Assembly: GCA_963837955.1 (NCBI GenBank)
Contig: CAWIPH010000002.1
Span: forward strand, 1,354,966-1,418,965
DNA from: an uncultured Verrucomicrobiae bacterium
Lineage (GTDB): Bacteria; Verrucomicrobiota; Verrucomicrobiia; Chthoniobacterales; JAFAMB01
Reading direction: 5' to 3'
Length of the DNA: 64,000 nucleotides
Within the stretch, counting starts at the first letter, position 1. Every line of letters begins with the position of its first letter. Below the pieces are notes generated by a model. That model did not search any database. It saw nothing but the letters and a program-made list of their open reading frames with translations, and was not told the DNA's origin. This document shows positions 3,601 through 24,094 of the stretch, one piece after another. Made by a program: the position numbers and the translations under genes.

Positions 3601-4910
3601 TGGCGCAGCAACAAACTCCAGTAGGCGTAAACGGGTACGACACGCACCATCCGCCGTCGGATGAACTGATCGACAAATGCGTGCATTGCGGGTTCTGCCT
3701 GCCCGTGTGCCCCACCTACGTGCTGTGGAACGAGGAGATGGACTCGCCGCGTGGGCGCATCTACCTGATGAAGATGGTCGCCGATGGCACCGCAACCATC
3801 AACAAAACATGGGTGAGCCATTTCGACGCCTGCCTCGGCTGTATGGCCTGCGTGACCGCGTGTCCCTCCGGCGTGGAGTATGGGAAGCTGATCGAAGCGA
3901 CCCGGGCGCAAATTGAGCGCCGCTATACGCGACCAGCTGCGGAGATGAGGTTTCGCCGGCTTCTGTTCAGCATCTTCCCGCGCCCAGACCGGCTGCGTGC
4001 GCTGTTGCTGCCGTTGCGTCTGTATCAGAAAGCCGGGCTCCAGTCCTTGGTGCGGCGCGCGGGCATTCCTAAATTGTTTCCAGCACGTTTTCGGGCCATG
4101 GAGGCGTTGTTGCCGCAAGTGCCCGCGCAGGAAACACTCCTTGAATTGATCCCGGCGCAGGGCGAACGGCGACGCCGCGTGGGATTGCTGCTCGGTTGCG
4201 TGCAGCGTGTGCTTTTCCCACAGGTCAATGCAGCCACGGCGCGCGTGCTCGCCGCAGAGGGATGCGAGGTAGTGGCTCCTAAGGCGCAACCTTGCTGCGG
4301 CGCCTTGCTGGTGCATGCTGGAGAAGAGGAGCAGGCGGTGCAACTCGCGCGTCAGACCATTGACGCGTTCGAAAAGGCTCAGGTCGATGCCGTGATCATC
4401 AATGCCGCGGGTTGTGGCTCGAATGTGAAAGAGTATGGCCACCTCCTGCGCGATGACTCGGAGTATGCCGAGCGCGCGAAAGTGTTTGCGGCGAAGTGCC
4501 GCGACGTTTCCGAATTTCTGGCCGAGCTCGAGCCGCGCGCTACCCGCCATGCGTTACCGCTGCGTGTGGCCTACCACGATGCCTGCCACTTGCAGCACGC
4601 GCAGGGAATACGTTCGCAGCCGCGGACAGTGCTGGGACGCATCCCGCAACTCGAATTACTGGAAATCCCCGAAGCCGCGATCTGCTGCGGCTCCGCCGGA
4701 ATCTACAACCTGGTACAACCGGAAGCTGCGACGGAGCTTGGCGATCGGAAAGCGAGTCACATCGCCGCGCTAGAGGCCGACATCGTTGTGTCGGCCAACC
4801 CCGGCTGCCTGTTGCAGCTCCAGTCGGCGCTGGCTCGCGCAGGGCGAAAGCTGCCGGTTCGCCACTTCATCGAGTTGCTCGACGCGTCGATCCGTGGCGT
4901 TTCTCTGTAG
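3600..4910 (+). CDS. glcF: Glycolate oxidase iron-sulfur subunit GlcF
   Basis: ATG at 3600 overlaps the glcE TAA stop. Two ferredoxin-type cluster motifs are present ('CVHCGFCLPVCP', 'CLGCMACVTACP'), with C-terminal CCG-type Cys motifs ('CCGSAG'). Confidence 0.9.
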   Translation: MAQQQTPVGVNGYDTHHPPSDELIDKCVHCGFCLPVCPTYVLWNEEMDSPRGRIYLMKMVADGTATINKTWVSHFDACLGCMACVTACPSGVEYGKLIEATRAQIERRYTRPAAEMRFRRLLFSIFPRPDRLRALLLPLRLYQKAGLQSLVRRAGIPKLFPARFRAMEALLPQVPAQETLLELIPAQGERRRRVGLLLGCVQRVLFPQVNAATARVLAAEGCEVVAPKAQPCCGALLVHAGEEEQAVQLARQTIDAFEKAQVDAVIINAAGCGSNVKEYGHLLRDDSEYAERAKVFAAKCRDVSEFLAELEPRATRHALPLRVAYHDACHLQHAQGIRSQPRTVLGRIPQLELLEIPEAAICCGSAGIYNLVQPEAATELGDRKASHIAALEADIVVSANPGCLLQLQSALARAGRKLPVRHFIELLDASIRGVSL

Positions 4911-7842: not shown

Positions 7843-8526
7843 ATGAAACAGGAGGTTTTTATGCATTATCATGACGATGACAGCGCGGTTCCCGCCTCTG
7901 CGGATGAGAGTCGTTCTTCGCGGCGGCATTTTTTGAGCCAACTGGCGGCGTTATCCGCCAGCTTGACGGTCGCAATCCCGGCGGCACGCGCCGCATCGCC
8001 GAACGAGCGTCCAGCTCCGAAGAATTCCGATCCGGAAACTAAAGGATCTCGGGTAGACGTTGTTTTAAAGGTGAACGGTCGGGAAAGCCGACTAAAGCTC
8101 GATTCCCGAGTGACGTTGCTGGATGCTGTCCGCGACCGACTGAACTTGAGCGGCACCAAGAAGGGATGCGATCATGGCGCGTGCGGCGCGTGCACGGTCT
8201 TGGTTGACGGGAAAAGGGTTCTTTCCTGTTTGACTTTGGCGGTGATGGCTCAAGGAAGGGAGATCACCACGATCGAGGGACTTGCGCACGGAGATGAACT
8301 GCATCCGGTGCAGGCCGCGTTTGTAACTTGTGATGGATTCCAGTGCGGTTATTGCACGCCAGGCCAGATCATGTCTGCTGTCGGTTGCATAGAAGAGGGG
8401 CATGCTCGTTCGGATAGCGAGATCAGGGAATTCATGTCTGGCAACCTTTGTCGTTGCGGTGCCTACCCCAACATTGTTGAAGCGATCAAACACGCTGCGA
8501 CTCAAATGAAAGGAGCGGTCAGTTAA
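7843..8526 (+). CDS. paoA: Periplasmic aldehyde oxidoreductase, 2Fe-2S subunit with Tat signal (PaoA/YagT-like)
   Basis: Twin-arginine signal 'SRRHFLSQLAALSASLTVAIPAARA'. Motifs 'CDHGACGACTV' and 'CGYCTPG...CRCG' match [2Fe-2S] sites of the xanthine dehydrogenase family. Size and gene order match E. coli paoABCD. Confidence 0.8.
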   Translation: MKQEVFMHYHDDDSAVPASADESRSSRRHFLSQLAALSASLTVAIPAARAASPNERPAPKNSDPETKGSRVDVVLKVNGRESRLKLDSRVTLLDAVRDRLNLSGTKKGCDHGACGACTVLVDGKRVLSCLTLAVMAQGREITTIEGLAHGDELHPVQAAFVTCDGFQCGYCTPGQIMSAVGCIEEGHARSDSEIREFMSGNLCRCGAYPNIVEAIKHAATQMKGAVS

Positions 8527-9500
8527 TGCAAGCCTTTCATTTTAATTTAGCGACCTCTCAAAAAGAGGCTGCTGCCGGTAGGACTGGTGCGGCTTTCATC
8601 GCGGGTGGCACCAACCTGATCGACCTGATGAAGCTGGAGGTCATGACCCCTGCGCAACTCATTGATCTCGGGCCACTCTCTTTACGCGGTGTGAAGGTGG
8701 ATGATAGCGGACTCCATATTGGCGCGCTCGAAAAAATGGCCGCGGTCGCGGAAGATCCACAAGTAGTTAAGAAGTATCCAGTCATTTCCCAGGCGTTGTT
8801 GAAGAGCGCTTCGGCCCAAATTCGCAATATGGCCACGATGGGAGGCAATCTGATGCAGCGAACGCGTTGCGGATATTTTCGAGATGTTGTTTCTCCCTGC
8901 AACAAGCGCGTACCCGGCAGCGGTTGTCCAGCGTTTGACGGCGAAAATCGGATGCACGCAATCTTCGGAGTGAGCGACTCTTGCTGCGCGACTCATCCGA
9001 GCGACCTGGCGGTCGCCTTGGTTGCTCTCGATGCCGTCCTGAAGCTAGAAAGTTCGCGAGAGATCCGGCAGGTAAAGCTGGAAGATTTTTATTTGCTACC
9101 AGGGAAGACGCCGGATCGAGAGCACGACATTCGCCCTGGTGAGATCATCACCGAAATTTTTGTCCCTCGCAAAGCGTGGGCTGGTCGGTCCGGTTATCTG
9201 AAGATTCGGGATAGAGAGTCTTATGAGTTTGCGTTGAGTTCGGCTGCGGCGGCTCTTGATCTTGATGGTTCGACCATTCGAGATGCCCGGATCGCCGTGG
9301 GTGGCGTCGGAACCAAGCCATGGGTTCTTCCGCATGTGGTGGAAGCGCTCAAGGGAAAAAACGCCAATCGGGCGGTATTCGAGGCCGCGGCGGAGCAGGC
9401 GACTGAGGGTGCAAAAACGTTGAGCCAAAACAGTTTCAAAGTGCCCCTGCTCAAAAAGACAATTGTTCGTGTTCTCAGCGAGGTAGGAGGTGTCGTATGA
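8526..9500 (+). CDS. paoB: Aldehyde oxidoreductase FAD-binding subunit (PaoB/YagS-like)
   Basis: 324 aa. 'FIAGGTNLIDLMK' is the FAD-binding motif of CO dehydrogenase/XDH medium subunits. The start overlaps the paoA stop. Confidence 0.8.
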   Translation: MQAFHFNLATSQKEAAAGRTGAAFIAGGTNLIDLMKLEVMTPAQLIDLGPLSLRGVKVDDSGLHIGALEKMAAVAEDPQVVKKYPVISQALLKSASAQIRNMATMGGNLMQRTRCGYFRDVVSPCNKRVPGSGCPAFDGENRMHAIFGVSDSCCATHPSDLAVALVALDAVLKLESSREIRQVKLEDFYLLPGKTPDREHDIRPGEIITEIFVPRKAWAGRSGYLKIRDRESYEFALSSAAAALDLDGSTIRDARIAVGGVGTKPWVLPHVVEALKGKNANRAVFEAAAEQATEGAKTLSQNSFKVPLLKKTIVRVLSEVGGVV

Positions 9501-11722
9501 GTGGTGTTTTTCAAGGACTCAATCGTGACCGTTTCGATGCAAAACTGAAAGTCACAGGGCAGGCGATGTATTCGGGAGACCATGATCTCCCTAATTTGGC
9601 TTTTGGTTATCTGATCCAAAGCAGCATTGGCCGCGGCCAAATCCGCGCTTTTGACCTGAGTGCTGCCGAAGAAAGCCCTGAGGTGATTGCAATTTTCACT
9701 CCGTTTAATTCGCTTAAGCTCTATCGGCCGCTTGGTCGTGACGAAGAGGTCAATAGCGGCGATGCGATCCCCTTGCTTCAGGATACGCAAGTACACTATT
9801 TCGGCCAAACCATTGGGTTAATTGTCGCTGAATCCTTCGAGCAAGCGCGAGATGCAGCTGCGCTGATCAAAGTAATCTATGAACCGAGACCGGCGGTGTG
9901 CACGTTGGAATCGGGGATGGCAAAGGCTTATCAGCCGCAAAGTGTGTCGGGGATGCCAGCGACCGTGAGCATCTTAGAATCAGGAGTGCCTTCGATCGAC
10001 GAAGCTCTTCGACAGGCGGACGTATCGATTGCTCAAGAGTATACCAGCCCCATCGAGCACCACAATCCGATGGAGCCGCACGCCACGGTGGCGGTTTGGG
10101 AGGAGGATCGTCTCACGGTCTACGATGCGACCCAGTGGGTGGATGGCCACCAACGAAACTTAGCGGCAGTCCTCGGAGTGGATGTTGATCACGTGCGCGT
10201 TGTTTGTCCTTTTGTCGGCGGGGCGTTTGGCTGCAAAGGGTCGATGTGGATGCACTCACCGCTCACCGCGGCGGCCGCCAGGGTTTTGAACCGACCGGTG
10301 AAAACAATTCTGACGCGTGAGCAGATGTACTCTACGGTCGGTCATCGCCCGACAACCCTGCAGAAAATCGAGCTGGGAGCGACCCGCGAAGGTGTGCTGC
10401 GGGCCGTGAAGCATGAAACCTTTTCGTCGACCGCGGTAGTCAAAGAATTCGTTGAGGCAGCGGCGCACCGAACCTCTCGTTATCTTTACAAATCGCCGAG
10501 TATCTTTGTCAGCCACCGGTTGGTTCCACTCGATATCGCGCCCGGCACTTTTATGCGAGCGCCCGGGGTGGCTCCCGGAATGTATGCGCTGGAGTCGGCC
10601 ATGGATGAGTTAGCGGTAAAGCTCGGGATCGATCCCGTTGAGTTGCGAGTAAAGAACCATGCCGAAATCTATCCGGGCGGGAACCTTCCATGGTCATCCA
10701 AGCATTTATTAGAATGCTATCAGAGAGGCGCAGACAAATTCGGATGGGCAATGCGCGACCCGAAGCCACGCATGTCCAGAGATGGTGACTGGCGGATTGG
10801 TCAGGGAATGGCGACAGCCCTTTATCCCGCACATCGCAGTAACGCCTCGGCGAAAATACGACTGCAAGCGGACGGATACGTCACGGTATCGAGCGCAACC
10901 CATGACCTCGGGACCGGGATGTATACCGTACTGGCGATTGTGGGGGCCCAGTCGCTCGAAATCTCTTACGAGCGAGTCCGCGCTGTGTTAGGTGATTCGG
11001 GCTTGCCGCCGGCACCGGGGGCTGGAGGCTCTCAGTCCACCGCAAGTGTCGGTCCGGCTGTCGTTGCAGCTGCCGAATCGGTCAAAAAGAAGTTGATTGA
11101 AGTGGCAGTCAAGGATCAGAAGTCTCCTTTCCAGGGCGCGAAGCCGGAGGAGCTTTCTTATGCGAACGGCGAAATTCATGGTGGCGGTAAATCGTTGTCC
11201 TTCGGTCAATTATTAAGCGCGCTCGGCCGAAGTGCGGTCGAGTCAACTGACTCAGCAGCTCCCGGAGAGGAAGAGCACAAATACGCTTTTGACTCTTTTG
11301 GCGCGCAATTCTGCGAAGTAAAGGTTCACGACCTCACAGGTGAGGTGCGGGTGAATCGGTTTTCCAGTGTTATGGACGTTGGCACCGTGGTGAGCGAGAA
11401 GACCGCCCGCAGCCAGATCATCGGAGGGATTGTGTTTGGTGTCGGAATGGCGCTCTTGGAGGCGACTCAATACGACGCTCGAACCGGTTGGATTGCCAAT
11501 CGTAACATCGCCGAATATTTGGTGGCGACAAACGCGGACATTCCGCCCGTCGACGTGGAGTTTCTCAATCGTCCGGATTTGGTCTTTAATTCGATCGGCG
11601 CTCGCGGAATAGGCGAAATCGGAATTAGCGGAGCGCCGGCCGCGGTGGCGAACGCGGTCTATCACGCAACCGGTAAGCGAATTCGGAAGTTGCCTATTCG
11701 GCCTGAAAATCTGATAACTTAG
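9497..11722 (+). CDS. paoC: Aldehyde oxidoreductase molybdopterin-binding large subunit (PaoC/YagR-like)
   Basis: 741 aa. XDH-family a/b hammerhead and MoCo-binding motifs are present ('GGAFGCKG', 'GIGEIGISGAPAAVANAV'). There is a 4-nt overlap with the preceding gene. Confidence 0.8.
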   Translation: MSGVFQGLNRDRFDAKLKVTGQAMYSGDHDLPNLAFGYLIQSSIGRGQIRAFDLSAAEESPEVIAIFTPFNSLKLYRPLGRDEEVNSGDAIPLLQDTQVHYFGQTIGLIVAESFEQARDAAALIKVIYEPRPAVCTLESGMAKAYQPQSVSGMPATVSILESGVPSIDEALRQADVSIAQEYTSPIEHHNPMEPHATVAVWEEDRLTVYDATQWVDGHQRNLAAVLGVDVDHVRVVCPFVGGAFGCKGSMWMHSPLTAAAARVLNRPVKTILTREQMYSTVGHRPTTLQKIELGATREGVLRAVKHETFSSTAVVKEFVEAAAHRTSRYLYKSPSIFVSHRLVPLDIAPGTFMRAPGVAPGMYALESAMDELAVKLGIDPVELRVKNHAEIYPGGNLPWSSKHLLECYQRGADKFGWAMRDPKPRMSRDGDWRIGQGMATALYPAHRSNASAKIRLQADGYVTVSSATHDLGTGMYTVLAIVGAQSLEISYERVRAVLGDSGLPPAPGAGGSQSTASVGPAVVAAAESVKKKLIEVAVKDQKSPFQGAKPEELSYANGEIHGGGKSLSFGQLLSALGRSAVESTDSAAPGEEEHKYAFDSFGAQFCEVKVHDLTGEVRVNRFSSVMDVGTVVSEKTARSQIIGGIVFGVGMALLEATQYDARTGWIANRNIAEYLVATNADIPPVDVEFLNRPDLVFNSIGARGIGEIGISGAPAAVANAVYHATGKRIRKLPIRPENLIT

Positions 11723-11724
11723 CG

Positions 11725-12639
11725 ATGGCCTGGAGCGATTTACGTTCAATTCTCAACCGATACGAACGGGAGACAGGCCCGTTCGTGTTGGCCACCCTCG
11801 TGCGGGTCTCCGGCTCGAGTTATCGTGGCCCCGGAGCCCGCGTCTTGATCAATCGCGATGGATCGTTTGTGGGACGCGTGAGCGCGGGGTGCCTGGAGGA
11901 AGAAATCGTTGCTCTGGCTTCGACAGTTTTTGCGACCGGAAAGAAACAACTGACAGCGTTCGATTTGCGGCCTCGATTTGCCTGCGACGGTACCGTGCAG
12001 GTATTCCTGGAGCCGATCGTTAAGCCACATTCTTTCTTTGCGGCGTTGGATAAGGTTCTCCGTCTGCGAGCGCCGATTTTCGTGGAAGTGACATTTCAAG
12101 GAGACGAGCAGGGGACTCATTTAGCAGAGAATCCGTTCAGCCTGAATGGGGGCACCTTTATTCAGCGAATCAATCCTCCGGTTCGCCTCTTTATCGTGGG
12201 CCGGCAATTCGACGTCGAACCTGTCGCTCAGTTCGGCCGGTTGCTAGGTTGGCAGACAGAAATTGTTCCGGACGGTTCTGGCCTTTTGCCGGCAGATGCT
12301 CAAACCGGGGCCGTTATCATGTCACACAACTTTGGCCAGGATTTCGGAGCGTTGCAGGCGGCTTGGCAGCAAGGATATCCGTATGTTGCGCTGGTGGGCG
12401 GCAATCGTCGTAAGTCACAGCTCTTTCATCTTTTGGCTGAGCAGGGCGCCCCGCTCGAGTGGATCGACCGCATTTTTAGTCCGGCCGGCCTGGATATCGG
12501 TGCCGAATCGTCGGAAGAGATCGCTCTGGCGATTGTTTCGGAAGTGCAAGCCGCTCTTGCCGGGCGGGCTTCCGGTTTTCTCAGAGATAGGAGCGGCTCG
12601 ATACATCAGTGGAAGGAGCCAGCGCGATGGTCGGCCTGA
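11725..12639 (+). CDS. paoD: XdhC-family molybdoenzyme maturation chaperone (PaoD/YagQ-like)
   Basis: 304 aa. The N-terminal 'ATLVRVSGSSYRGPGARVLI' XdhC/CoxI motif is present. It lies directly after the large subunit. Confidence 0.75.
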   Translation: MAWSDLRSILNRYERETGPFVLATLVRVSGSSYRGPGARVLINRDGSFVGRVSAGCLEEEIVALASTVFATGKKQLTAFDLRPRFACDGTVQVFLEPIVKPHSFFAALDKVLRLRAPIFVEVTFQGDEQGTHLAENPFSLNGGTFIQRINPPVRLFIVGRQFDVEPVAQFGRLLGWQTEIVPDGSGLLPADAQTGAVIMSHNFGQDFGALQAAWQQGYPYVALVGGNRRKSQLFHLLAEQGAPLEWIDRIFSPAGLDIGAESSEEIALAIVSEVQAALAGRASGFLRDRSGSIHQWKEPARWSA

Positions 12640-16901: not shown

Positions 16902-17470
16902 ATCCGACCCCGAGCCGGTAGTCCGCTGGCTCCAACCATGAGGCCTCGGTGTGAGCGCTCGACTGAGCTCACGACTTCGGGGAGCTAAACCACCCGCCGG
17001 CCGGTTTCGTTGTTTTCCAAAGGCGGCTCAGCCATAGGTATTCTGAATTGCCATGGGCTGGTTCCTGACCGCCAGGGCTAAGTTCGGCCGCCCGCGAGCC
17101 TTTTAGCTGTCAAGACAAGTTGACATCGGCAGCCACCGGCCGAAGCCATTTGCAGGAGTACGAGTCGCAGCAAAGCGCTGGTTCGACGGCGGATTGAACG
17201 GAATCTTGCCCGGAAGCCCTGAAATCGCAGAGACCGTCCTCCGGTGCAATCGACCTGTGAAGTCAATCTATAAATATTATAGGAGACCTCAGTTTTCCTC
17301 TGAGTCTCAAAATTGCAACAAGTTTGGTTGCATCTGCGAAATCGGCTCTCATTGTTGCCGGCGACTTGTGCAGTTTTGGCACAAGTCGGTCATTCGTAAG
17401 AATCGCAAATAGAATAAGTACCAGAATGCCATGGCCTTCGCCTCAGCATTCTGTAACAGGAGACTCTTGT

Positions 17471-18613
17471 ATGAGAAAAAAATTATTACTGCTTTTGGCC
17501 GCGGTCACCGTGGCAACCACCCTCGGGCGCGAAACCAGCGCTGGTTTTGCATCAACCAATGGCGTTAATGTAACCGTGGGGCTGCGGACACAGCCCATTA
17601 ACGATCTGGCCTTTGGTGCGCCGACTCATCCTGGCAACGGCCTGGTCTTTGGTGCGCCGACTCATCCTGGCAACGGCCTGGTCTTTGGTGGTCCGACTCA
17701 TCCCGGCAACGGCCTGGTCTTTGGTGGTCCGACTCATCCTGGCAACGGCCTAGTCTTTGGTGGTCCGACTCATCCTGGCAGCGGCCTAGTCTTTGGTGCG
17801 CCGACTCATCCTGGCAACGGCCTAGTCTTTGGTGCGCCGACTCATCCTGGCAACGGCCTAGTCTTTGGTGCGCCGACTCATCCCGGCAACGGCCTGGTCT
17901 TTGGTGGTCCGACTCATCCCGGCAACGGCCTGGTCTTTGGTGGTCCGACTCATCCTGGCAACGGCCTGGTCTTTGGTGGTCCGACTCATCCGATCAGCGG
18001 CCTAGTCTTTGGTGCGCCGACTCATCCGGGCAACGGCCTAGTCTTTGGTGGCCCGACTCACCCACCGATAAGCGGCTTAGTGTTTGGTGGCCCGACTCAC
18101 CCGCCGATCAGCGGCTTAGTCTTTGGTGGCCCGACTCACCCGCCGATCAGCGGCTTAGTGTTTGGTGGCCCGACTCACCCGCCGATCAGCAGCTTAGTCT
18201 TTGGTGGGCCGACCCATCCCTCGGCCAGCCGCGTTATGGCGAGGACCGGCGATTTTGTAATGCTTCCTCTCGGAACAGAAACCGGCCGTCATATCCGGAG
18301 GGGGAGTCTCGAATCTGAAAAGTCCGCCAAAGACTCGGAGTTGAGCAAATCGACTGTTTCGAATCCGCTCGCTATGCTCCCTTTGGGTAGGGAGAGCGGC
18401 CGACACATCCGGACCGAGAGCGCAAGAGATATCCACTCTGAGTCTGGTAAACACCAAGATGCGAATCCTATCGCACTGAACGGTCATCTGGGTATCGGCT
18501 ATGCGATGCTGCCTTTAGGAGCGGAGACGGGACGACACATCCGGAATCTGGACGAAAATAACAGAGCGACCGAAAGGACCGTCGTCGCGAGTGAACCGAA
18601 AGCGAGTGCGTAA
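17471..18613 (+). CDS. Secreted tandem-repeat protein: 17 x 'LVFG(A/G)PTHPGNG' followed by 3 x 'MLPLGxExGRHIR'
   Basis: AGGAG lies 8 nt upstream of the ATG at 17471. Signal peptide 'MRKKLLLLLAAVTVATTLG'. The repeats are in frame throughout. The ORF-track start at 17324 has no support. Confidence 0.75.
   Translation: MRKKLLLLLAAVTVATTLGRETSAGFASTNGVNVTVGLRTQPINDLAFGAPTHPGNGLVFGAPTHPGNGLVFGGPTHPGNGLVFGGPTHPGNGLVFGGPTHPGSGLVFGAPTHPGNGLVFGAPTHPGNGLVFGAPTHPGNGLVFGGPTHPGNGLVFGGPTHPGNGLVFGGPTHPISGLVFGAPTHPGNGLVFGGPTHPPISGLVFGGPTHPPISGLVFGGPTHPPISGLVFGGPTHPPISSLVFGGPTHPSASRVMARTGDFVMLPLGTETGRHIRRGSLESEKSAKDSELSKSTVSNPLAMLPLGRESGRHIRTESARDIHSESGKHQDANPIALNGHLGIGYAMLPLGAETGRHIRNLDENNRATERTVVASEPKASA
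17606..18229 (+). repeat. Coding tandem repeat: 12 units of 36 bp, 4 units of 39 bp, 1 unit of 36 bp
   Basis: Unit is CTGGTCTTTGGTG(G/C)(T/G)CCGACTCATCC(T/C)GGCAACGGC. Copies differ by 0-3 nt. The 39-bp variant carries an extra Pro codon (THPPISG). Confidence 0.95.
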
Positions 18614-18695: not shown

Positions 18696-19232
18696 TCACG
18701 GCTCGACAAAGCTCGAATGCATAACGACAATCACCCAGTTATCGTTAATTTTTCGGAAGACCATCGTCGAAGTGCCGAGCGTTTTCCCTTTCTTCTGAAA
18801 AACTGTCCACCAGTCCAGCCCAACGGCCACATCTGGTGAGACCAGTTGAATTTGAACGCGGTCATAGACGACAGAACCCATTTCGTCTCGATTGGGGTAG
18901 CCACGGTGATATGTCGCATTGACGTCCGCCCAGCCCTTCAATTGCTCCCCCTCAATGACCACCAGTAAATCTGGGGATTTCCAACAGGGAGCGAGGTATC
19001 CATCGATATCGTGCGCATTCCAACGGTCGCCCATATTGATGAGCAAGGTATATATTTGCTGGTAGTCAGACGGATCTAGCTGGGGTGCAGACTGTGTTGC
19101 TGAAGGCTTGATGGAATCAAAACCCCAGGTGCCATAGGTCGGGGCGTTCTGCGCGAAAAGAGCGGTCACAGGAAAGGAGCACAGCGTCCCCAAGAGGAGG
19201 GAGCGGAGGAGCTTTTTAGTGACCATAGACAA
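18696..19232 (-). CDS. Secreted NTF2-like (SnoaL/DUF4440-type) protein
   Basis: Signal peptide 'LLLGTLCSFPVTALFAQ'. The cone-fold pattern 'MGDRWNAHDIDGYLAPCW...WTVF...STMVFRKINDNWVIVVMHSS' is present. Confidence 0.65.
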   Translation of the reverse strand: MSMVTKKLLRSLLLGTLCSFPVTALFAQNAPTYGTWGFDSIKPSATQSAPQLDPSDYQQIYTLLINMGDRWNAHDIDGYLAPCWKSPDLLVVIEGEQLKGWADVNATYHRGYPNRDEMGSVVYDRVQIQLVSPDVAVGLDWWTVFQKKGKTLGTSTMVFRKINDNWVIVVMHSSFVEP

Positions 19233-19948: not shown

Positions 19949-22900
19949 GTGAACTCGGAGTCTTTTGGTGTTCTCGGTGCGTCAGGTCATTATCCGGCGT
20001 CCAATTCTTTGCCGCGTTTGCGCATCTTCGTTTCGTCGCCGGGAGATGTGGATACCGAACGCCAGATTGCTAGCCGAGTTATCGACCGGTTGCGTGTGCG
20101 ATTTCAAGAGCATGGCGAGATCGATCCATATTTCTGGGAGTACGAACCGATGCGCCATCACGCGACGTTCCAGAATCAGATACCGCCCACATCTGATTTT
20201 GATGTTGTTATCTGCATTCTTTGGTCTCGGCTCGGAACCCCACTGATAGGTCCGGACGGAAAACGCTACGCTTCGGGGACCGAGTACGAGGTCGCGTCCG
20301 CGCGCGAATCATGGAAAACCACCGGGAGTCCGGAGGTCATGATCTATCTGCATGACGCGCCCGCGCAGATTCGGCAATTCCCAGACTCCGAATTTCAAAA
20401 GATGGTGGATCAGTTGAAGGCGCTCAAACGCTTTGTCGCCGAATATTGCCAAGATCCGGCGACGGGGGAGATTAAGGGTGCGTTTACTACTTATCGAGAC
20501 CTCGGTCAGTTCGAGACACTGCTCGAAAAACATCTAGAAAAACTGATCGAGCGAAAACTGCCGAAGCGGTGGATTGATCAACGCACCGAGATAACCCCAC
20601 ATTGGGTGGGCCAGAGCCCTTTCCGGGGCTTGGCCGCCTTCGACTTTGAGCATTCACCGATCTTTTTCGGACGGACGAAAGCCGTGGGAGAGGTGCTCGC
20701 CCAGTTGCGCCGGCGAATGGGAGCAGTCGAAGATGCGCGAGCGGCCAAGATGCCAGAGATAACCGCTGCGGCCTTTGTACTCGTTTCCGCCATGAGCGGG
20801 GTGGGCAAATCGTCCCTGGTTCGAGCCGGCATTTTGCCGCTGCTGGTGGAGCCTGGAAACGGCATTGCGCTCTGGCGCCGCGCGGAGGTGCGACCAAGCG
20901 AGTTTGCTGGTGATCTCTTCGACGGCTTAGCCCGCGCGCTCTGCGCTGAGGAAGCGTTGCCAGAGTTGCTGAGCGGCGAGACAACGGTGGAAACGGTTGC
21001 TGGTTTTCTGCGTCGGAATCCGGCCGGCATCGAATTTGGATTAAGCAGCGCGTTGGATCGCGCTAGCGCCGAACTCAAGCGCCAGGAAGAGCTGGACCTC
21101 CAAGCCCAAGAGCAGAGTTTTCGCTACCATGGCCGGCTCGCCGATGCCGACGCAGCGGACGAGAAGATAGCGCAACTCCGCAAAGCAACCTTTCCGAGTC
21201 GCCTGGTTTTGGTCGTCGATCAGTTGGAAGAATTGTTTACGCTCGAATCGATCACGCCCGAGGTCCGCACGAATTTCATCACGGCAATCGCGGCGCTGGC
21301 CAGAAGCGGCCGGGTTGCGGTGCTGGTAACGTTGCGAAGCGATTTCTTTGAAAAATGCGCTGAGGTTCCCGTGCTCGCGGAGTTAAGCAAGGGAGATGGT
21401 CTGTACCACTTGCTTCCGCCCAACGCACTCGAGATCGGCCAGATGATCCGAGAACCGGCGATTGCGGCTGGTTTGCAGTTCGAGATTTTTCAGGAAACCA
21501 AACAATCTTTGGACGAACGCCTACGCGATGCTGCGACTCGCAACCCGGAGGCCCTACCGCTCTTGCAATTCTGCTTGGAAGCGCTGTACCAGGCTCAAGC
21601 GAAACGGGGAGACGGGCTGCTCACCCATGCCGATTACGATGCGATAGGTGGAGTGGAAGGAGCCCTGGCTAATCGGGCGGAGGAGACATTTCTTCGTTTG
21701 CAGCCCGCAGAACAAGCCGAGTTCAGCCGGGTGATGCGAGCGGTAACGACAGCAGATGATAACGAGACGTTCACCCGGCGCTGGGCCGATCGAGATGAAC
21801 TTACCCGCGTGCCGGCAGCAAAAGCATTTGTCGATGCGTTTCTGGCTCCGGAAGCGCGATTGCTGGTCGTCGATCGAGATCTCCGTGGTCGGGTCGTTGT
21901 GAGTGTCACTCACGAGGCGTTACTGACCCGCTGGGAACGCTTACATCAATGGTTGCTGACTAATCTGGAAAACTTGCGGATGCGCGCTCAGGTAAGCGCC
22001 GATGCCCTCCGCTGGCGTCAGAGTGGACGCAACAACGACTATCTCTACGCCGGCGCTCTGCCGTTGGCGAAGGCCCACGACTTGGCGGAGCGCGATTTTC
22101 TGGACGATGCGGAGCGAGAATTTGTCGATGCTTCCGTGCGGGCGGCGCGTTCGGCCTCGGAGAAGAAGCGTCGCAACTTGCACCGGGTAATCGCTGGCGT
22201 GAGCGTAGTTGCCATCGTCGCGATCGTGCTCGCTATCACGAGCTTCGTGCAATATTCGCGAGCCAGGGCGGCAAAGAGACAAGCAGGTCAAGCCGCTCAG
22301 CGGGCAAAGCTCGCACGCACCGAGGCCGAAAAATTAATCAACTTTCTGGTGGGCGATCTCCACGACAAACTGAAACCGATCGGCAGGCTGGATTTGTTGG
22401 CAGAGATTAGTAAACGCGTCCGGGCTTATTATGAGAACTTCGCGGAACGGGAAAAGAATCCCGAGGCGCTCAAACAATGGAGCACCGCGCTAATAAATCA
22501 GGGTGATGTATTAACTGATCAAGGCGACCTGGATGCCGCACTGAAATGTTATGAGGAGTCGCTCTCGACCAGACAAATTCTCTTAAAGCAGAGTTCGAAC
22601 AGTACAGAATCGCGGCGAGATGTTGCTTCCGCACTGTTAAAAATTGCCGGGAATCGACATGCCCGCGGCGATTTTAGCGGCGCGCTGGCAATTTACGAAC
22701 AGGCGTTAGCAATCCGAAGAGAGATCGTAGTGACCGAGCCGGGAAACCAAGAGTTTCAGCATGATCTTTCGGTTGCGCTGGAGTTCGTTGGGCGGGCGGC
22801 ACACAATGCCGGCGATCAGACCAAGGCGCTTCGGAACTTGCGAGACGCAATTGCGGTCGGTCGACAAATCGTGCGCGGAACCTCAGTACCAGCCGCTTGG

Positions 22901-24094
22901 CAGAGCGATTTATCTTACGCCCTGCTCCTCGCTGGCGACGTCTTCATGGAACAAAACGACTCGGCCGAAGCGCTACAAGAATATCAGGATTCACTAGTCA
23001 TTCGAGAGCGGCTAGCAAGGGCGGAGCCAGACGACTCAGATCGGCAAAGGGATTTAGCCTTGAGTCTGGAGGAGGTCGGATATGCATTGGCTGATCAGGG
23101 AGATGAAACGGCTGCTTTGGACAAACAGCGGTTAGCTCTCGCGATCCGAGAGAAACTGGTTGGCCGGGATCCGGAGAACACCGATTGGCGGCAACAATTA
23201 TCGGTGAGTTACCGAAACATCGGGAGAATTCTCGCTGACCAGGGAGATCTTGAAGCCGCCCTGGTGAGCTATCAAAGTGGTTTGCGAATCCGAGAAAAAT
23301 TGGCCGCAGACAACCCGTCGAATGACCTGGCCCAACGCGATCTCGGTATCACCGAAGGGGATATTGGGGAGATCTTCCTGATGAAAGATGACCCGGTTGG
23401 CGCTCTTGAAAAATTTCACATGGCGGTAACCCGCCTTCGAGCGCTGGCAACCAAAAATCCAGAGAACCTCCTCTGGCAAAGCGATCTTGGTGAAGCACTC
23501 ATGGAAGCTGGGGACGCGGAGACGAAAAATAGCGAATTTGAGTCCGGGTTCGCCGAACTCGACGAAGCGCTTTCCATTTTCGGCCGGCTCAGCCAGCGAG
23601 ATCCCAATAATCTGTTCTGGCAATATATGACTGCGCTCACCCAGGTGAATCTGGGAGTGCTTTGCGGGTCTCAGAAGAAGTGGGCCGACGCCCTCCACAG
23701 CGAAGAGATGGCCGCGGAAACACTTCACCGGCTTTTGCAACAGGTTCCATCTTCGGTTTCCTTTATCGAAGACTTGGCCAGATGTGATTATCGCATCGGC
23801 GAAGCAGCGGAAGGGAGTGGAGATGAAGAAAGAGCGACGGGCCGATTCAGGGAAGCGTACGATTTGTTAGAACCCCTGGTTAACAAAGAATCCGGGAGGC
23901 GAGAGTGGATAGTCCAGTTTGCTCGTGTCGCCTATCATTTGGGTACTGCTCTGCACTCCCCTGGAGAAGGTCGAGCGATTCTCGAGAAAGGTCGCGATGC
24001 ACTGCTACCGCTTGAACAAAAGAATCTTCTTAGTGCTGATGACAAGGCAACACTGACCGATATTCGAAACGTCCTTGACCGAAATAGAGACTGA
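19949..24094 (+). CDS. DUF4062-like N-terminal domain - STAND (nSTAND/NACHT-like) NTPase - TM helix - TPR array protein
   Basis: GTG start with GGAG 11 nt upstream. N-terminus: 'RIFVSSPGDVDTER...SGTEYEVASA'. 'FRGLAAFDFEHSPIFFGR' at nt 20621-20674. Walker A 'SAMSGVGKSSLVRAG' at ~20791-20812. Walker B 'LVLVVDQLEELF' at ~21200-21238. Hydrophobic helix 'VIAGVSVVAIVAIVLAITSFV' at ~22187-22249. The remaining ~550 aa are degenerate 40-aa TPR-like repeats ('...GD...AL..Y..SL.I...L'). Confidence 0.8.
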   Translation: MNSESFGVLGASGHYPASNSLPRLRIFVSSPGDVDTERQIASRVIDRLRVRFQEHGEIDPYFWEYEPMRHHATFQNQIPPTSDFDVVICILWSRLGTPLIGPDGKRYASGTEYEVASARESWKTTGSPEVMIYLHDAPAQIRQFPDSEFQKMVDQLKALKRFVAEYCQDPATGEIKGAFTTYRDLGQFETLLEKHLEKLIERKLPKRWIDQRTEITPHWVGQSPFRGLAAFDFEHSPIFFGRTKAVGEVLAQLRRRMGAVEDARAAKMPEITAAAFVLVSAMSGVGKSSLVRAGILPLLVEPGNGIALWRRAEVRPSEFAGDLFDGLARALCAEEALPELLSGETTVETVAGFLRRNPAGIEFGLSSALDRASAELKRQEELDLQAQEQSFRYHGRLADADAADEKIAQLRKATFPSRLVLVVDQLEELFTLESITPEVRTNFITAIAALARSGRVAVLVTLRSDFFEKCAEVPVLAELSKGDGLYHLLPPNALEIGQMIREPAIAAGLQFEIFQETKQSLDERLRDAATRNPEALPLLQFCLEALYQAQAKRGDGLLTHADYDAIGGVEGALANRAEETFLRLQPAEQAEFSRVMRAVTTADDNETFTRRWADRDELTRVPAAKAFVDAFLAPEARLLVVDRDLRGRVVVSVTHEALLTRWERLHQWLLTNLENLRMRAQVSADALRWRQSGRNNDYLYAGALPLAKAHDLAERDFLDDAEREFVDASVRAARSASEKKRRNLHRVIAGVSVVAIVAIVLAITSFVQYSRARAAKRQAGQAAQRAKLARTEAEKLINFLVGDLHDKLKPIGRLDLLAEISKRVRAYYENFAEREKNPEALKQWSTALINQGDVLTDQGDLDAALKCYEESLSTRQILLKQSSNSTESRRDVASALLKIAGNRHARGDFSGALAIYEQALAIRREIVVTEPGNQEFQHDLSVALEFVGRAAHNAGDQTKALRNLRDAIAVGRQIVRGTSVPAAWQSDLSYALLLAGDVFMEQNDSAEALQEYQDSLVIRERLARAEPDDSDRQRDLALSLEEVGYALADQGDETAALDKQRLALAIREKLVGRDPENTDWRQQLSVSYRNIGRILADQGDLEAALVSYQSGLRIREKLAADNPSNDLAQRDLGITEGDIGEIFLMKDDPVGALEKFHMAVTRLRALATKNPENLLWQSDLGEALMEAGDAETKNSEFESGFAELDEALSIFGRLSQRDPNNLFWQYMTALTQVNLGVLCGSQKKWADALHSEEMAAETLHRLLQQVPSSVSFIEDLARCDYRIGEAAEGSGDEERATGRFREAYDLLEPLVNKESGRREWIVQFARVAYHLGTALHSPGEGRAILEKGRDALLPLEQKNLLSADDKATLTDIRNVLDRNRD

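Follow-up and report, generated by a model that had tools for sequence, protein, structure and literature searches.

Proteins built from tandem copies of a short peptide are known from bacteria, fungi, plants and nematodes. Bacterial examples of the variable-number tandem-repeat (VNTR) or contingency type include streptococcal alpha C/Rib, the staphylococcal SD-repeat proteins and the Vlp lipoproteins of mycoplasmas. A second bacterial group comprises the multi-core precursors of ribosomally synthesized peptides that undergo post-translational modification (RiPPs), such as cyanobactins, graspetides like plesiocin, and thiovarsolins. As a rule, such precursors receive their modifications in the cytoplasm, carry no Sec signal peptides and are encoded beside their maturation enzymes; bufferins are reportedly an exception, being RiPP precursors with Sec signal peptides. 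Among eukaryotes, the Kex2-processed repeat proteins (KEPs) of fungi are defined by a signal peptide and tandem repeats separated by dibasic (KR/RR/KK) protease sites (PMC7329392), and the CEP precursors of Rotylenchulus combine a signal peptide with a variable domain and as many as nine tandem peptide domains (PMC8618561). Here, we analyze a repeat gene from an uncultured Verrucomicrobiae bacterium, located in a stretch of 64,000 nucleotides (assembly GCA_963837955.1, contig CAWIPH010000002.1, positions 1,354,966 to 1,418,965 of the forward strand; henceforth the window). It encodes a predicted secreted protein in which a tandem array that is rewritten between orthologues, and that changes copy number on identical flanks, precedes three copies of a 14-residue box whose peptide sequence is held by strong purifying selection.

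The repeat gene belongs to a small family. A word-indexed search returned 16 unnamed metagenomic proteins of 212–266 aa, and an exhaustive HMMER search of 1.84 billion cluster representatives with a profile of the box region gave 16 matches. These share an architecture of signal peptide, array, boxes and tail, except for two weak tail matches: P0029 (E = 8e-07), a repeat protein unrelated to the family, and P0030 (E = 1e-04), a member that is truncated or frameshifted and keeps a single box. In pattern scans across 185,579 species representatives, the gene turned up in three species represented by metagenome-assembled genomes (one Verrucomicrobiota bacterium, one uncultured Verrucomicrobiae bacterium and one Chthoniobacterales bacterium), and a metagenome scan added 31 further contigs. 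All 40-odd loci, where long enough to judge, correspond to the chromosomal locus of the window, with syntenic neighbor proteins that are 62–87% identical. The repeat genes are orthologues within one narrow clade.

In the window, the array is an uninterrupted in-frame minisatellite. Its composition as given in the first-pass annotation of this DNA, i.e., twelve 36-bp units, four 39-bp units and a final 36-bp unit, was reproduced exactly when the array was cut by hand (Table 1). Tandem Repeats Finder reported a period of 36 at 17606–18060 (12.6 copies, 93% matches, score 707) together with overlapping period-72 and period-108 rows reaching 18220. An array of 17 copies at ca. 90% identity lies far beyond chance. 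The annotation had read recent expansion or concerted evolution from units said to differ by 0–3 nt. Concerted evolution is borne out by the near-identity of units inside a protein; the stated range was too narrow: the 36-bp units differ by 0–7 nt (mostly 0–4), the 39-bp units by 1–5 nt among themselves, and the terminal unit lies 9–12 nt from the others. Likewise, the His-Pro-Gly that had been assigned to every unit is present in 11 of the 17 only, the others having HPI, HPP or HPS. Most differences between units are synonymous (CTG/CTA/TTA, GTC/GTG, CCT/CCC/CCG/CCA, CAT/CAC, ATA/ATC), with a ratio of nonsynonymous to synonymous polymorphism (pN/pS) of 0.32 among the 36-bp and 0.08 among the 39-bp units. 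The units are under purifying selection that is weaker than the selection acting on the boxes.

Between orthologues, the unit sequence is replaced wholesale, a feature that the first-pass annotation missed. Unit types at the orthologous locus include LVFG[AG]PTHPGNG (12–13 aa; the window), Y[AV]FGMPTHPV[DN]S (12 aa), YAFGLPTHPSAK (12 aa), LAFVMPTHSVVDES (13–15 aa) and LAFVMPWKTVTSDE (14 aa), as well as the short types VAFLPPTGSR/VAFLPPTGGGR (10–11 aa) and LAFLPPTRQIS, LAFLPPKSGFN and VAFLPPTGKGP (11 aa each); LVFGAPTHPGNG and YAFGMPTHPVDS are examples of such units. The sole feature kept in all of them is Φ-[AV]-F-x-x-P. Units are 10 to 15 aa long, and different lengths are mixed within arrays, with 12- and 13-aa units in the window and units of 10, 11 and 13 aa in L005, one of the orthologous loci. 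Because the net charge of the array swings from -16 to +15 across orthologues and His is absent from several unit types (VAFLPPTGSR, LAFLPPKSGFN, LAFVMPWKTVTSDE), the bulk chemistry of the array, including any metal binding by His-Pro-Gly, is not conserved. The unit core looks like a degenerate version of the first residues of the box, Φ-A-M-L-P, and in the shortest members the three motifs adjoin, as IAFVMPTH...TSVMPTLKLAMLPLG, which suggests that the array was derived from a motif just 5' of box 1.

Copy number, as assembled from short reads, differs between alleles that are otherwise indistinguishable around the array, as the first-pass annotation had predicted. Four alleles from different samples (L027, L029, L034 and L033) encode proteins of 211, 233, 277 and 299 aa, i.e., in steps of 11-aa units, on flanks that are 100% identical over 153 nt on the 5' side and 258 nt on the 3' side. 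In the window's own population, contig L038 holds 11 units (308 aa) versus 17, and the order of its unit variants is rearranged; its flanks match those of the window at 135/135 nt and 384/384 nt, the leader is identical at 298/300 nt, and its SnoaL-like neighbor is 100% identical. Wider ranges are seen within unit types, from 1 to ca. 20 units for YAFGMPTHPVDS (complete genes of 207 to 427 aa) and from 5 units in one allele to ca. 16 in another for LAFVMPWKTVTSDE. The array changes its copy number, and its units are homogenized within each gene.

The boxes follow a different regime. All three (A/V)MLPLGxExGRHIR boxes of the first-pass annotation are located in the C-terminal part of the open reading frame; that they are the truly constrained part of the protein had gone unremarked. 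Across the family, the box takes the form [AV]MLPLGxExGRH[IV]R, spans 14 residues and occurs two to three times per protein, in surroundings of hydrophilic linkers that are predicted to be disordered. The 85 boxes of the family are encoded by 39 distinct DNA versions, in all of which Met2, Leu3, Pro4, Leu5, Gly10 and His12 are invariant. At the Leu, Pro, Gly and Arg positions, four to six different codons are used each, so that the box is synonymously saturated. Since the residues remain invariant despite four to six codons per site, strong purifying selection acts on the box peptide and not on the DNA.

The freedom of the array raises the possibility that it is a neutral, runaway minisatellite, a passenger in a protein that would owe its entire function to the signal peptide and the boxes, so that number and sequence of the units would carry no functional meaning. 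Some alleles have just one or two units (L016, L011 and the P0025/L025 type), and the complete turnover of unit sequence, the span of array charge from -16 to +15 and unit lengths of 10 to 15 aa would all agree with a passenger. Yet Φ[AV]Fxx[P] is kept in every unit type, arrays are always in frame, and 10–20 copies are maintained in several lineages. The pN/pS values of 0.08–0.32, together with numerous synonymous variants at codons for Leu, Val, Gly, Pro, His and Ile, also speak for selection on the unit peptide, and the allele that most clearly has a single unit (L028, L032, L036) is a pseudogene. We consider a purely neutral array improbable. The pseudogene lineage, to which L035 also belongs, has codon 5 changed from TTA to TGA (L028 5819–5833), a single unit, a G-to-S change in box 1 and a decayed leader, and the DUF937 and GDSL genes upstream are replaced by other genes; the repeat gene is therefore dispensable.

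The designation as a secreted protein in the first-pass annotation agrees with the N-terminus, in which an MRKK n-region, a Leu/Ala-rich h-region and a cleavage-type site between TSA and G, with small residues at -3 and -1, are all kept in homologues. Small residues at these two positions are the established von Heijne rule for calling signal-peptide cleavage. The start ATG at 17471 is common to all homologues, which open with MRKK, and all full-length homologues show the canonical n-h-c form, with a family pattern of MRKKLLLLLAAL.VA...GRETSA. Residues 2–19 form a helix in the AlphaFold model. By these rules, the protein is probably exported via Sec. The signal peptide is ca. 80–90% identical family-wide, even where the remaining protein diverges. 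At the other end, the hydrophilic tail has the consensus NLxExNxxxEKTVAAxxPKAxA (alignment A1). Inspection revealed no transmembrane segment, Cys lipobox or sorting motif in the repeat protein, in line with zero NCBIfam matches and with the Pfam search, and none of the usual means of surface anchoring (LPXTG, lipobox, C-terminal transmembrane segment, autotransporter barrel) was found.

As a separate observation on the signal peptide, its conservation is unusual for a Sec leader, and its end (TTLGRETSA, or IIPGRETSA in relatives; 17471–17542) resembles LPLGRESGR of box 2 (18371–18412). The resemblance may reflect shared recognition or a common origin.

Searches of Pfam, NCBIfam, PADLOC, PDB, Foldseek and the literature left both motifs without a match, as the first-pass annotation had surmised in placing neither in a described family. 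The sole Pfam match of the repeat protein, PF20844 PCF11_RFEG_rpt, reached 29.7 bits versus a gathering threshold of 43 bits and is a low-complexity match to the array only. With the whole protein, zero matches were obtained in NCBIfam and in PADLOC, and a phmmer search of the PDB gave a best E-value of 0.15. The box-region profile A1 had zero PDB matches and nothing consistent in Pfam, and a full-text literature search with the motif strings found no paper. The repeat protein represents a new orphan family.

AlphaFold2 in single-sequence mode assigned pLDDT values of 70–83 (block means) to residues ca. 41–200 of the window array, falling to the 50s–60s near residue 250, and placed one strand of three to four residues in each 12-aa unit. 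Residues 249–380, which include the boxes, remained below 35. These predictions bear on the idea in the first-pass annotation of a beta-solenoid or polyproline II fibre whose His-Pro-Gly turns would bind metal or a surface. The strand per unit at pLDDT 70–83 would suit such a fibre, as would the 17 His residues of the window array, and the weak, non-significant PDB and Foldseek matches are all beta-helix proteins, the weakest of them left-handed beta-helix enzymes. However, single-sequence AlphaFold predictions on perfect repeats tend towards regular stacks, and the array of the orthologue P0015, built from 11-aa units, reached only 50–64. Foldseek against the PDB gave a best E-value of 0.39 with TM-scores below 0.2, and no Pfam hexapeptide-repeat match was obtained for the repeat protein. 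A rigid, conserved solenoid is unlikely because units of 10–15 aa, with lengths mixed within single arrays, are hard to fit to a fixed coil, and the proposed metal or surface binding is contradicted by His-free orthologous arrays whose charge varies from -16 to +15. We regard the fibre as very unlikely. More probable is a chain of loose order or none, in which each unit would add a single short, hydrophobic patch prone to form a strand.

Local likeness to a plant peptide hormone suggests another function. The unit VFGAPTHPGNG can be set against the CEP domain AFRPTNPGNSPGVGH, so that the protein of these soil bacteria might mimic a plant hormone of the CEP type. The stretch F-x(1-2)-P-T-x-P-G-N is shared with the CEP domains in Table 1 of PMC8618561, and a signal peptide followed by a variable region and then by tandem domains is also the arrangement of nematode CEP precursors. 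The alignment nevertheless needs a one-residue gap, the SPGxGH C-terminal half is missing, other unit types (AFLPPTGSR, AFVMPWK, AFLPPKSGFN) show no likeness, Pfam gives no support, and chance likeness is likely in a sequence rich in Pro, Gly and Thr. Hormone mimicry is thus barely credible. Membership in the CEP family itself was ruled out, as the domain [AD]F[RK]PTxPGxSPGxGH is not matched and only F..PT.PGN is in common.

We tentatively favor, with somewhat less than even confidence, a reading of the repeat gene as a lineage-restricted accessory gene of Chthoniobacterales-type Verrucomicrobiota, whose product would be an exported, anchorless and mostly non-globular motif-display protein. 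The contrast between an invariant short motif and its freely varying context is what points to motif display. Once exported, the protein would offer one short linear motif in many copies to a partner outside the cytoplasm that is itself conserved (a receptor, an enzyme or an anchor, for example), with the invariant boxes acting as specific docking sites and the array setting valency and length. Replication slippage or unequal recombination would alter the copy number, and concerted evolution would homogenize the units within each gene while the non-motif half turns over between relatives.

Several observations weigh against this reading. The copy numbers come from short-read metagenome assemblies, which are able to collapse tandem repeats, so that small counts are provisional, and most other contigs of the window's population break inside the array. 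As a side observation, the exact 380-aa product and its 395-aa and 429-aa alternative-start versions are absent from a collection of 15 billion proteins in which the SnoaL-like neighbor is present (P0031); many metagenome contigs also end in the array, and evidently assembly, gene calling or both fail on the repeat. The pLDDT of 70–83 with a strand per unit in the window array leaves a folded stack possible. The neighboring genes are uninformative on function because every locus found is one and the same syntenic locus. Finally, an architecture in which identical short units stand behind a signal peptide and beside conserved motifs would suit a cleaved precursor equally well.

Such a multi-copy peptide precursor, the chief rival reading, would be cut after Sec export into units of 10–15 residues, into the 14-residue boxes or into both, releasing diffusible signals or antimicrobials, with the boxes or the ΦAF junctions serving as recognition or cleavage sites. 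A signal peptide ahead of back-to-back, near-identical short units would be at home in a precursor, as would a hypervariable core beside invariant flanking motifs, a pattern typical of peptide precursors. A copy number that is free from 1 to ca. 20 would be expected if dosage were its only effect; the protein has neither an anchor nor a globular domain; R-H-I-R closes the box, as G-R closes several unit types; and the layout is like that of KEPs (PMC7329392) and of Rotylenchulus CEP precursors (PMC8618561). Cleavage, however, finds no obvious site: the last residue of the unit is G, S, E, R, S, N or P depending on the type, which leaves no conserved cleavage residue at unit boundaries, no dibasic sites separate the units, and in more than 30 loci no gene for a protease, a modification enzyme or a transporter adjoins the repeat gene. 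We hold a precursor to be possible, though on balance rather unlikely. In a more specific form, argued by analogy, the gene might encode the first bacterial Sec-exported polyprotein that is cut outside the cytoplasm, with the unit as hypervariable cargo and the box as conserved recognition or bioactive element, a prokaryotic parallel to fungal KEPs and to the tandem hormone precursors of plants and nematodes; we judge this proposal unlikely. If a precursor it were, the secreted-peptide strategy of eukaryotes would extend to bacteria.

Table 1. Features of the repeat gene and its surroundings (positions in the window).
Feature	Position	Strand	Basis and remarks
Conserved non-coding region (promoter, operator, 5' leader)	17258..17470	+	Alignments of 8 and 11 orthologous loci
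Inverted repeat TTGCAAC-N6/7-GTTGCA(A)	17313..17332	+	Candidate operator or small hairpin, putative function
Perfect 10-bp hairpin CGACTTGTGC-N7-GCACAAGTCG	17362..17388	+	-16.9 kcal/mol, z = -3.9 versus shuffles
Sigma-70-like promoter match TTGGCA-16 nt-AAGAAT	17376..17403	+	Consensus scan only
Shine-Dalgarno-like AGGAG	17458..17462	+	8 nt 5' of the ATG; read from sequence
Coding sequence of the repeat protein	17471..18613	+	380 aa, stop included; homologues have the same architecture
Predicted Sec-type signal peptide MRKKLLLLLAAVTVATTLGRETSA	17471..17542	+	Cleavage predicted after TSA
In-frame minisatellite, 17 units	17606..18229	+	Tandem Repeats Finder and cutting by hand
Twelve 36-bp units	17606-18037	+	L[AV]FG[AG]PTHPG[NS]G, including one HPIS variant
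Four 39-bp units, longer by one Pro codon	18038-18193	+	Encode LVFGGPTHPPISG or a version ending in S
Diverged terminal 36-bp unit	18194-18229	+	Encodes LVFGGPTHPSAS
Box 1 VMLPLGTETGRHIR	18257..18298	+	Read from sequence, alignment
Box 2 AMLPLGRESGRHIR	18371..18412	+	Read from sequence, alignment
Box 3 AMLPLGAETGRHIR	18503..18544	+	Read from sequence, alignment
Hydrophilic C-terminal tail NLDENNRATERTVVASEPKASA	18545..18610	+	No hydrophobic anchor
SnoaL/DUF4440-like (NTF2-fold) neighbor with signal peptide	18696..19232	-	Pfam SnoaL_3 and TIGR02246 matches, sub-threshold

Strong conservation extends upstream of the repeat gene, which the first-pass annotation also overlooked. Alignment with orthologous leaders (L002, L004–L006, L012, L014, L016, L017, L021 and L033) revealed a leader region of ca. 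215 nt that is conserved more strongly than most of the protein, beyond which the sequences cannot be aligned. Its invariant blocks are TGAAGTCAAT.TATAAAAATTAT, TGAGTCTCAAAATTGCAAC, GTTGCAA.TGCGAAA, GTAAGAATCG and AATAAATACCAGAAT. Because these continuous blocks are separated by 1-nt indels, the region is non-coding, and on the same grounds a Cys-rich open reading frame at 17194–17412 (+; 72 codons, TTG start, NCNKFGCICEIGSHCC) was ruled out as coding. The arms of the inverted repeat are invariant in most of 11 loci while its spacer varies, the second arm of the window reading GTTGCAT; its folding energy is unexceptional (z = -1.3). The -10 hexamer of the sigma-70-like match falls in the invariant block GTAAGAATCG. 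A sigma-54 promoter at TGGCAC was ruled out on inspection, as no TTGC stands at the needed spacing. The 10-bp hairpin described in the first-pass annotation is real in the window, but its stem is not kept in L006, L033, L004, L014 and L017, and it overlaps the predicted -35 hexamer. Comparison of the leader with Rfam gave only noise up to E = 10, and RNAalifold on 11 leaders returned a weak consensus of -10.9 kcal/mol with a covariation term of -0.25. We read 17258–17470 as probable promoter and operator DNA with a short leader and not as a structured RNA.

Alleles of the YAFGMPTHPVDS type additionally carry a CCTGT microrepeat of two to four copies in the leader (L004 ca. 4480–4510; L014 ca. 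2085–2120), just 5' of the ribosome-binding site. Its copy number differs between contigs, making it a second, non-coding hypervariable tract of the repeat gene.

The repeat gene is monocistronic, with ca. 600 nt of intergenic DNA upstream and a convergent gene downstream. The gene order reads OpgC, GATase, GDSL lipase (-), DUF937 (+), repeat gene (+), SnoaL-like (-) and nSTAND1-TPR (+). The SnoaL-like gene lies downstream in nearly every sufficiently long orthologous locus, even where upstream synteny is broken, and its distant homologues (ca. 45% identity) have no repeat gene next to them. We treat it as context. The nSTAND1 NTPase and TPR protein (1381 aa, 19949–24094, +) matches the PADLOC candidate defence model PDC-S60 with its N-terminal 135 residues (E = 3e-10). 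In relatives, its gene appears as a tblastn match split over adjacent frames (L003) or as a 369-aa TPR fragment (L001) and thus seems to be decaying in some of them. Further away are an operon for a molybdoenzyme of the xanthine-dehydrogenase/CO-dehydrogenase type (7843–12639, +; 2Fe-2S, FAD, MoCo and XdhC subunits) and two genes of the phosphoesterase family PF04185 (25665–27038, +; 27318–30140, -), one of them fused to a lactonase-like beta-propeller. The wider surroundings of the repeat gene are ordinary chromosomal context.

Should the motif-display reading be true, a single protein would join two evolutionary regimes, a self-rewriting minisatellite and a 14-residue peptide frozen by selection, and the family would point to a system of extracytoplasmic recognition in soil Verrucomicrobiota that are abundant but uncultured. 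As a synthetic peptide, the invariant box would then offer a precise bait for the partner. The array is a ready strain-typing marker for these populations and a known trouble spot for assembly and gene calling.

Set against the systems described at the outset, the repeat protein is closest to VNTR or contingency-type secreted proteins, with which it shares predicted export, in-frame near-identical units and a copy number that differs on identical flanks (in short-read assemblies). Unlike these proteins, it is anchored neither to wall nor to membrane nor by lipid, as far as its sequence shows, and has no globular domain; its unit sequence and length are replaced while a 5-residue core is kept, and its most constrained part is a separate 14-residue box. 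It has no sequence relation to the alpha C/Rib, SD-repeat or Vlp families.

Fungal KEPs and ustiloxin-type precursors resemble it in having a signal peptide, many tandem short peptides, diverse repeats and a variable copy number. They differ in that no unit type of the repeat protein has a dibasic site between units and no gene for a processing or cyclizing enzyme lies nearby; moreover, KEPs are products of the eukaryotic ER and Golgi, whereas the repeat protein is a predicted bacterial Sec substrate. With the tandem CEP and CLE precursors of plants and nematodes (PMC8618561, PMC5103176), the protein has in common a signal peptide, a variable region and a series of Pro-rich domains, which in those precursors number one to nine and span 12–15 residues. 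In contrast to CEP, the SPGxGH half is missing, and the F..PT.PGN likeness is confined to the unit type of the window.

Multi-core RiPP precursors likewise pair repeated, hypervariable core-like segments with invariant recognition-like motifs. The repeat protein departs from them in its Sec signal peptide, and in none of the loci does the repeat gene adjoin a gene for a radical-SAM, YcaO or ATP-grasp enzyme, a protease or an ABC exporter. Structurally, a 12-aa period equal to two hexapeptides and a predicted strand per unit recall left-handed beta-helices and the 12-residue-coil beta-helices of antifreeze proteins, but no match was significant (PDB E = 0.15; Foldseek E ≥ 0.39; TM < 0.2), and a fixed coil does not agree with units that vary in length. 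Curli CsgA and Fap, with repeats rich in Q, N and G and operons for secretion and nucleation, are unlike the monocistronic repeat gene with its Pro-rich units, and no Csg or Fap homologues were found near it.

In its dynamics, the repeat gene thus behaves like a VNTR or contingency-type gene, yet it lacks the defining features of KEPs, RiPP precursors, CEP and left-handed beta-helices. New here is an orphan family, restricted to one lineage, whose protein is divided in an unusual way into an array that rewrites itself and a peptide box that stays invariant.

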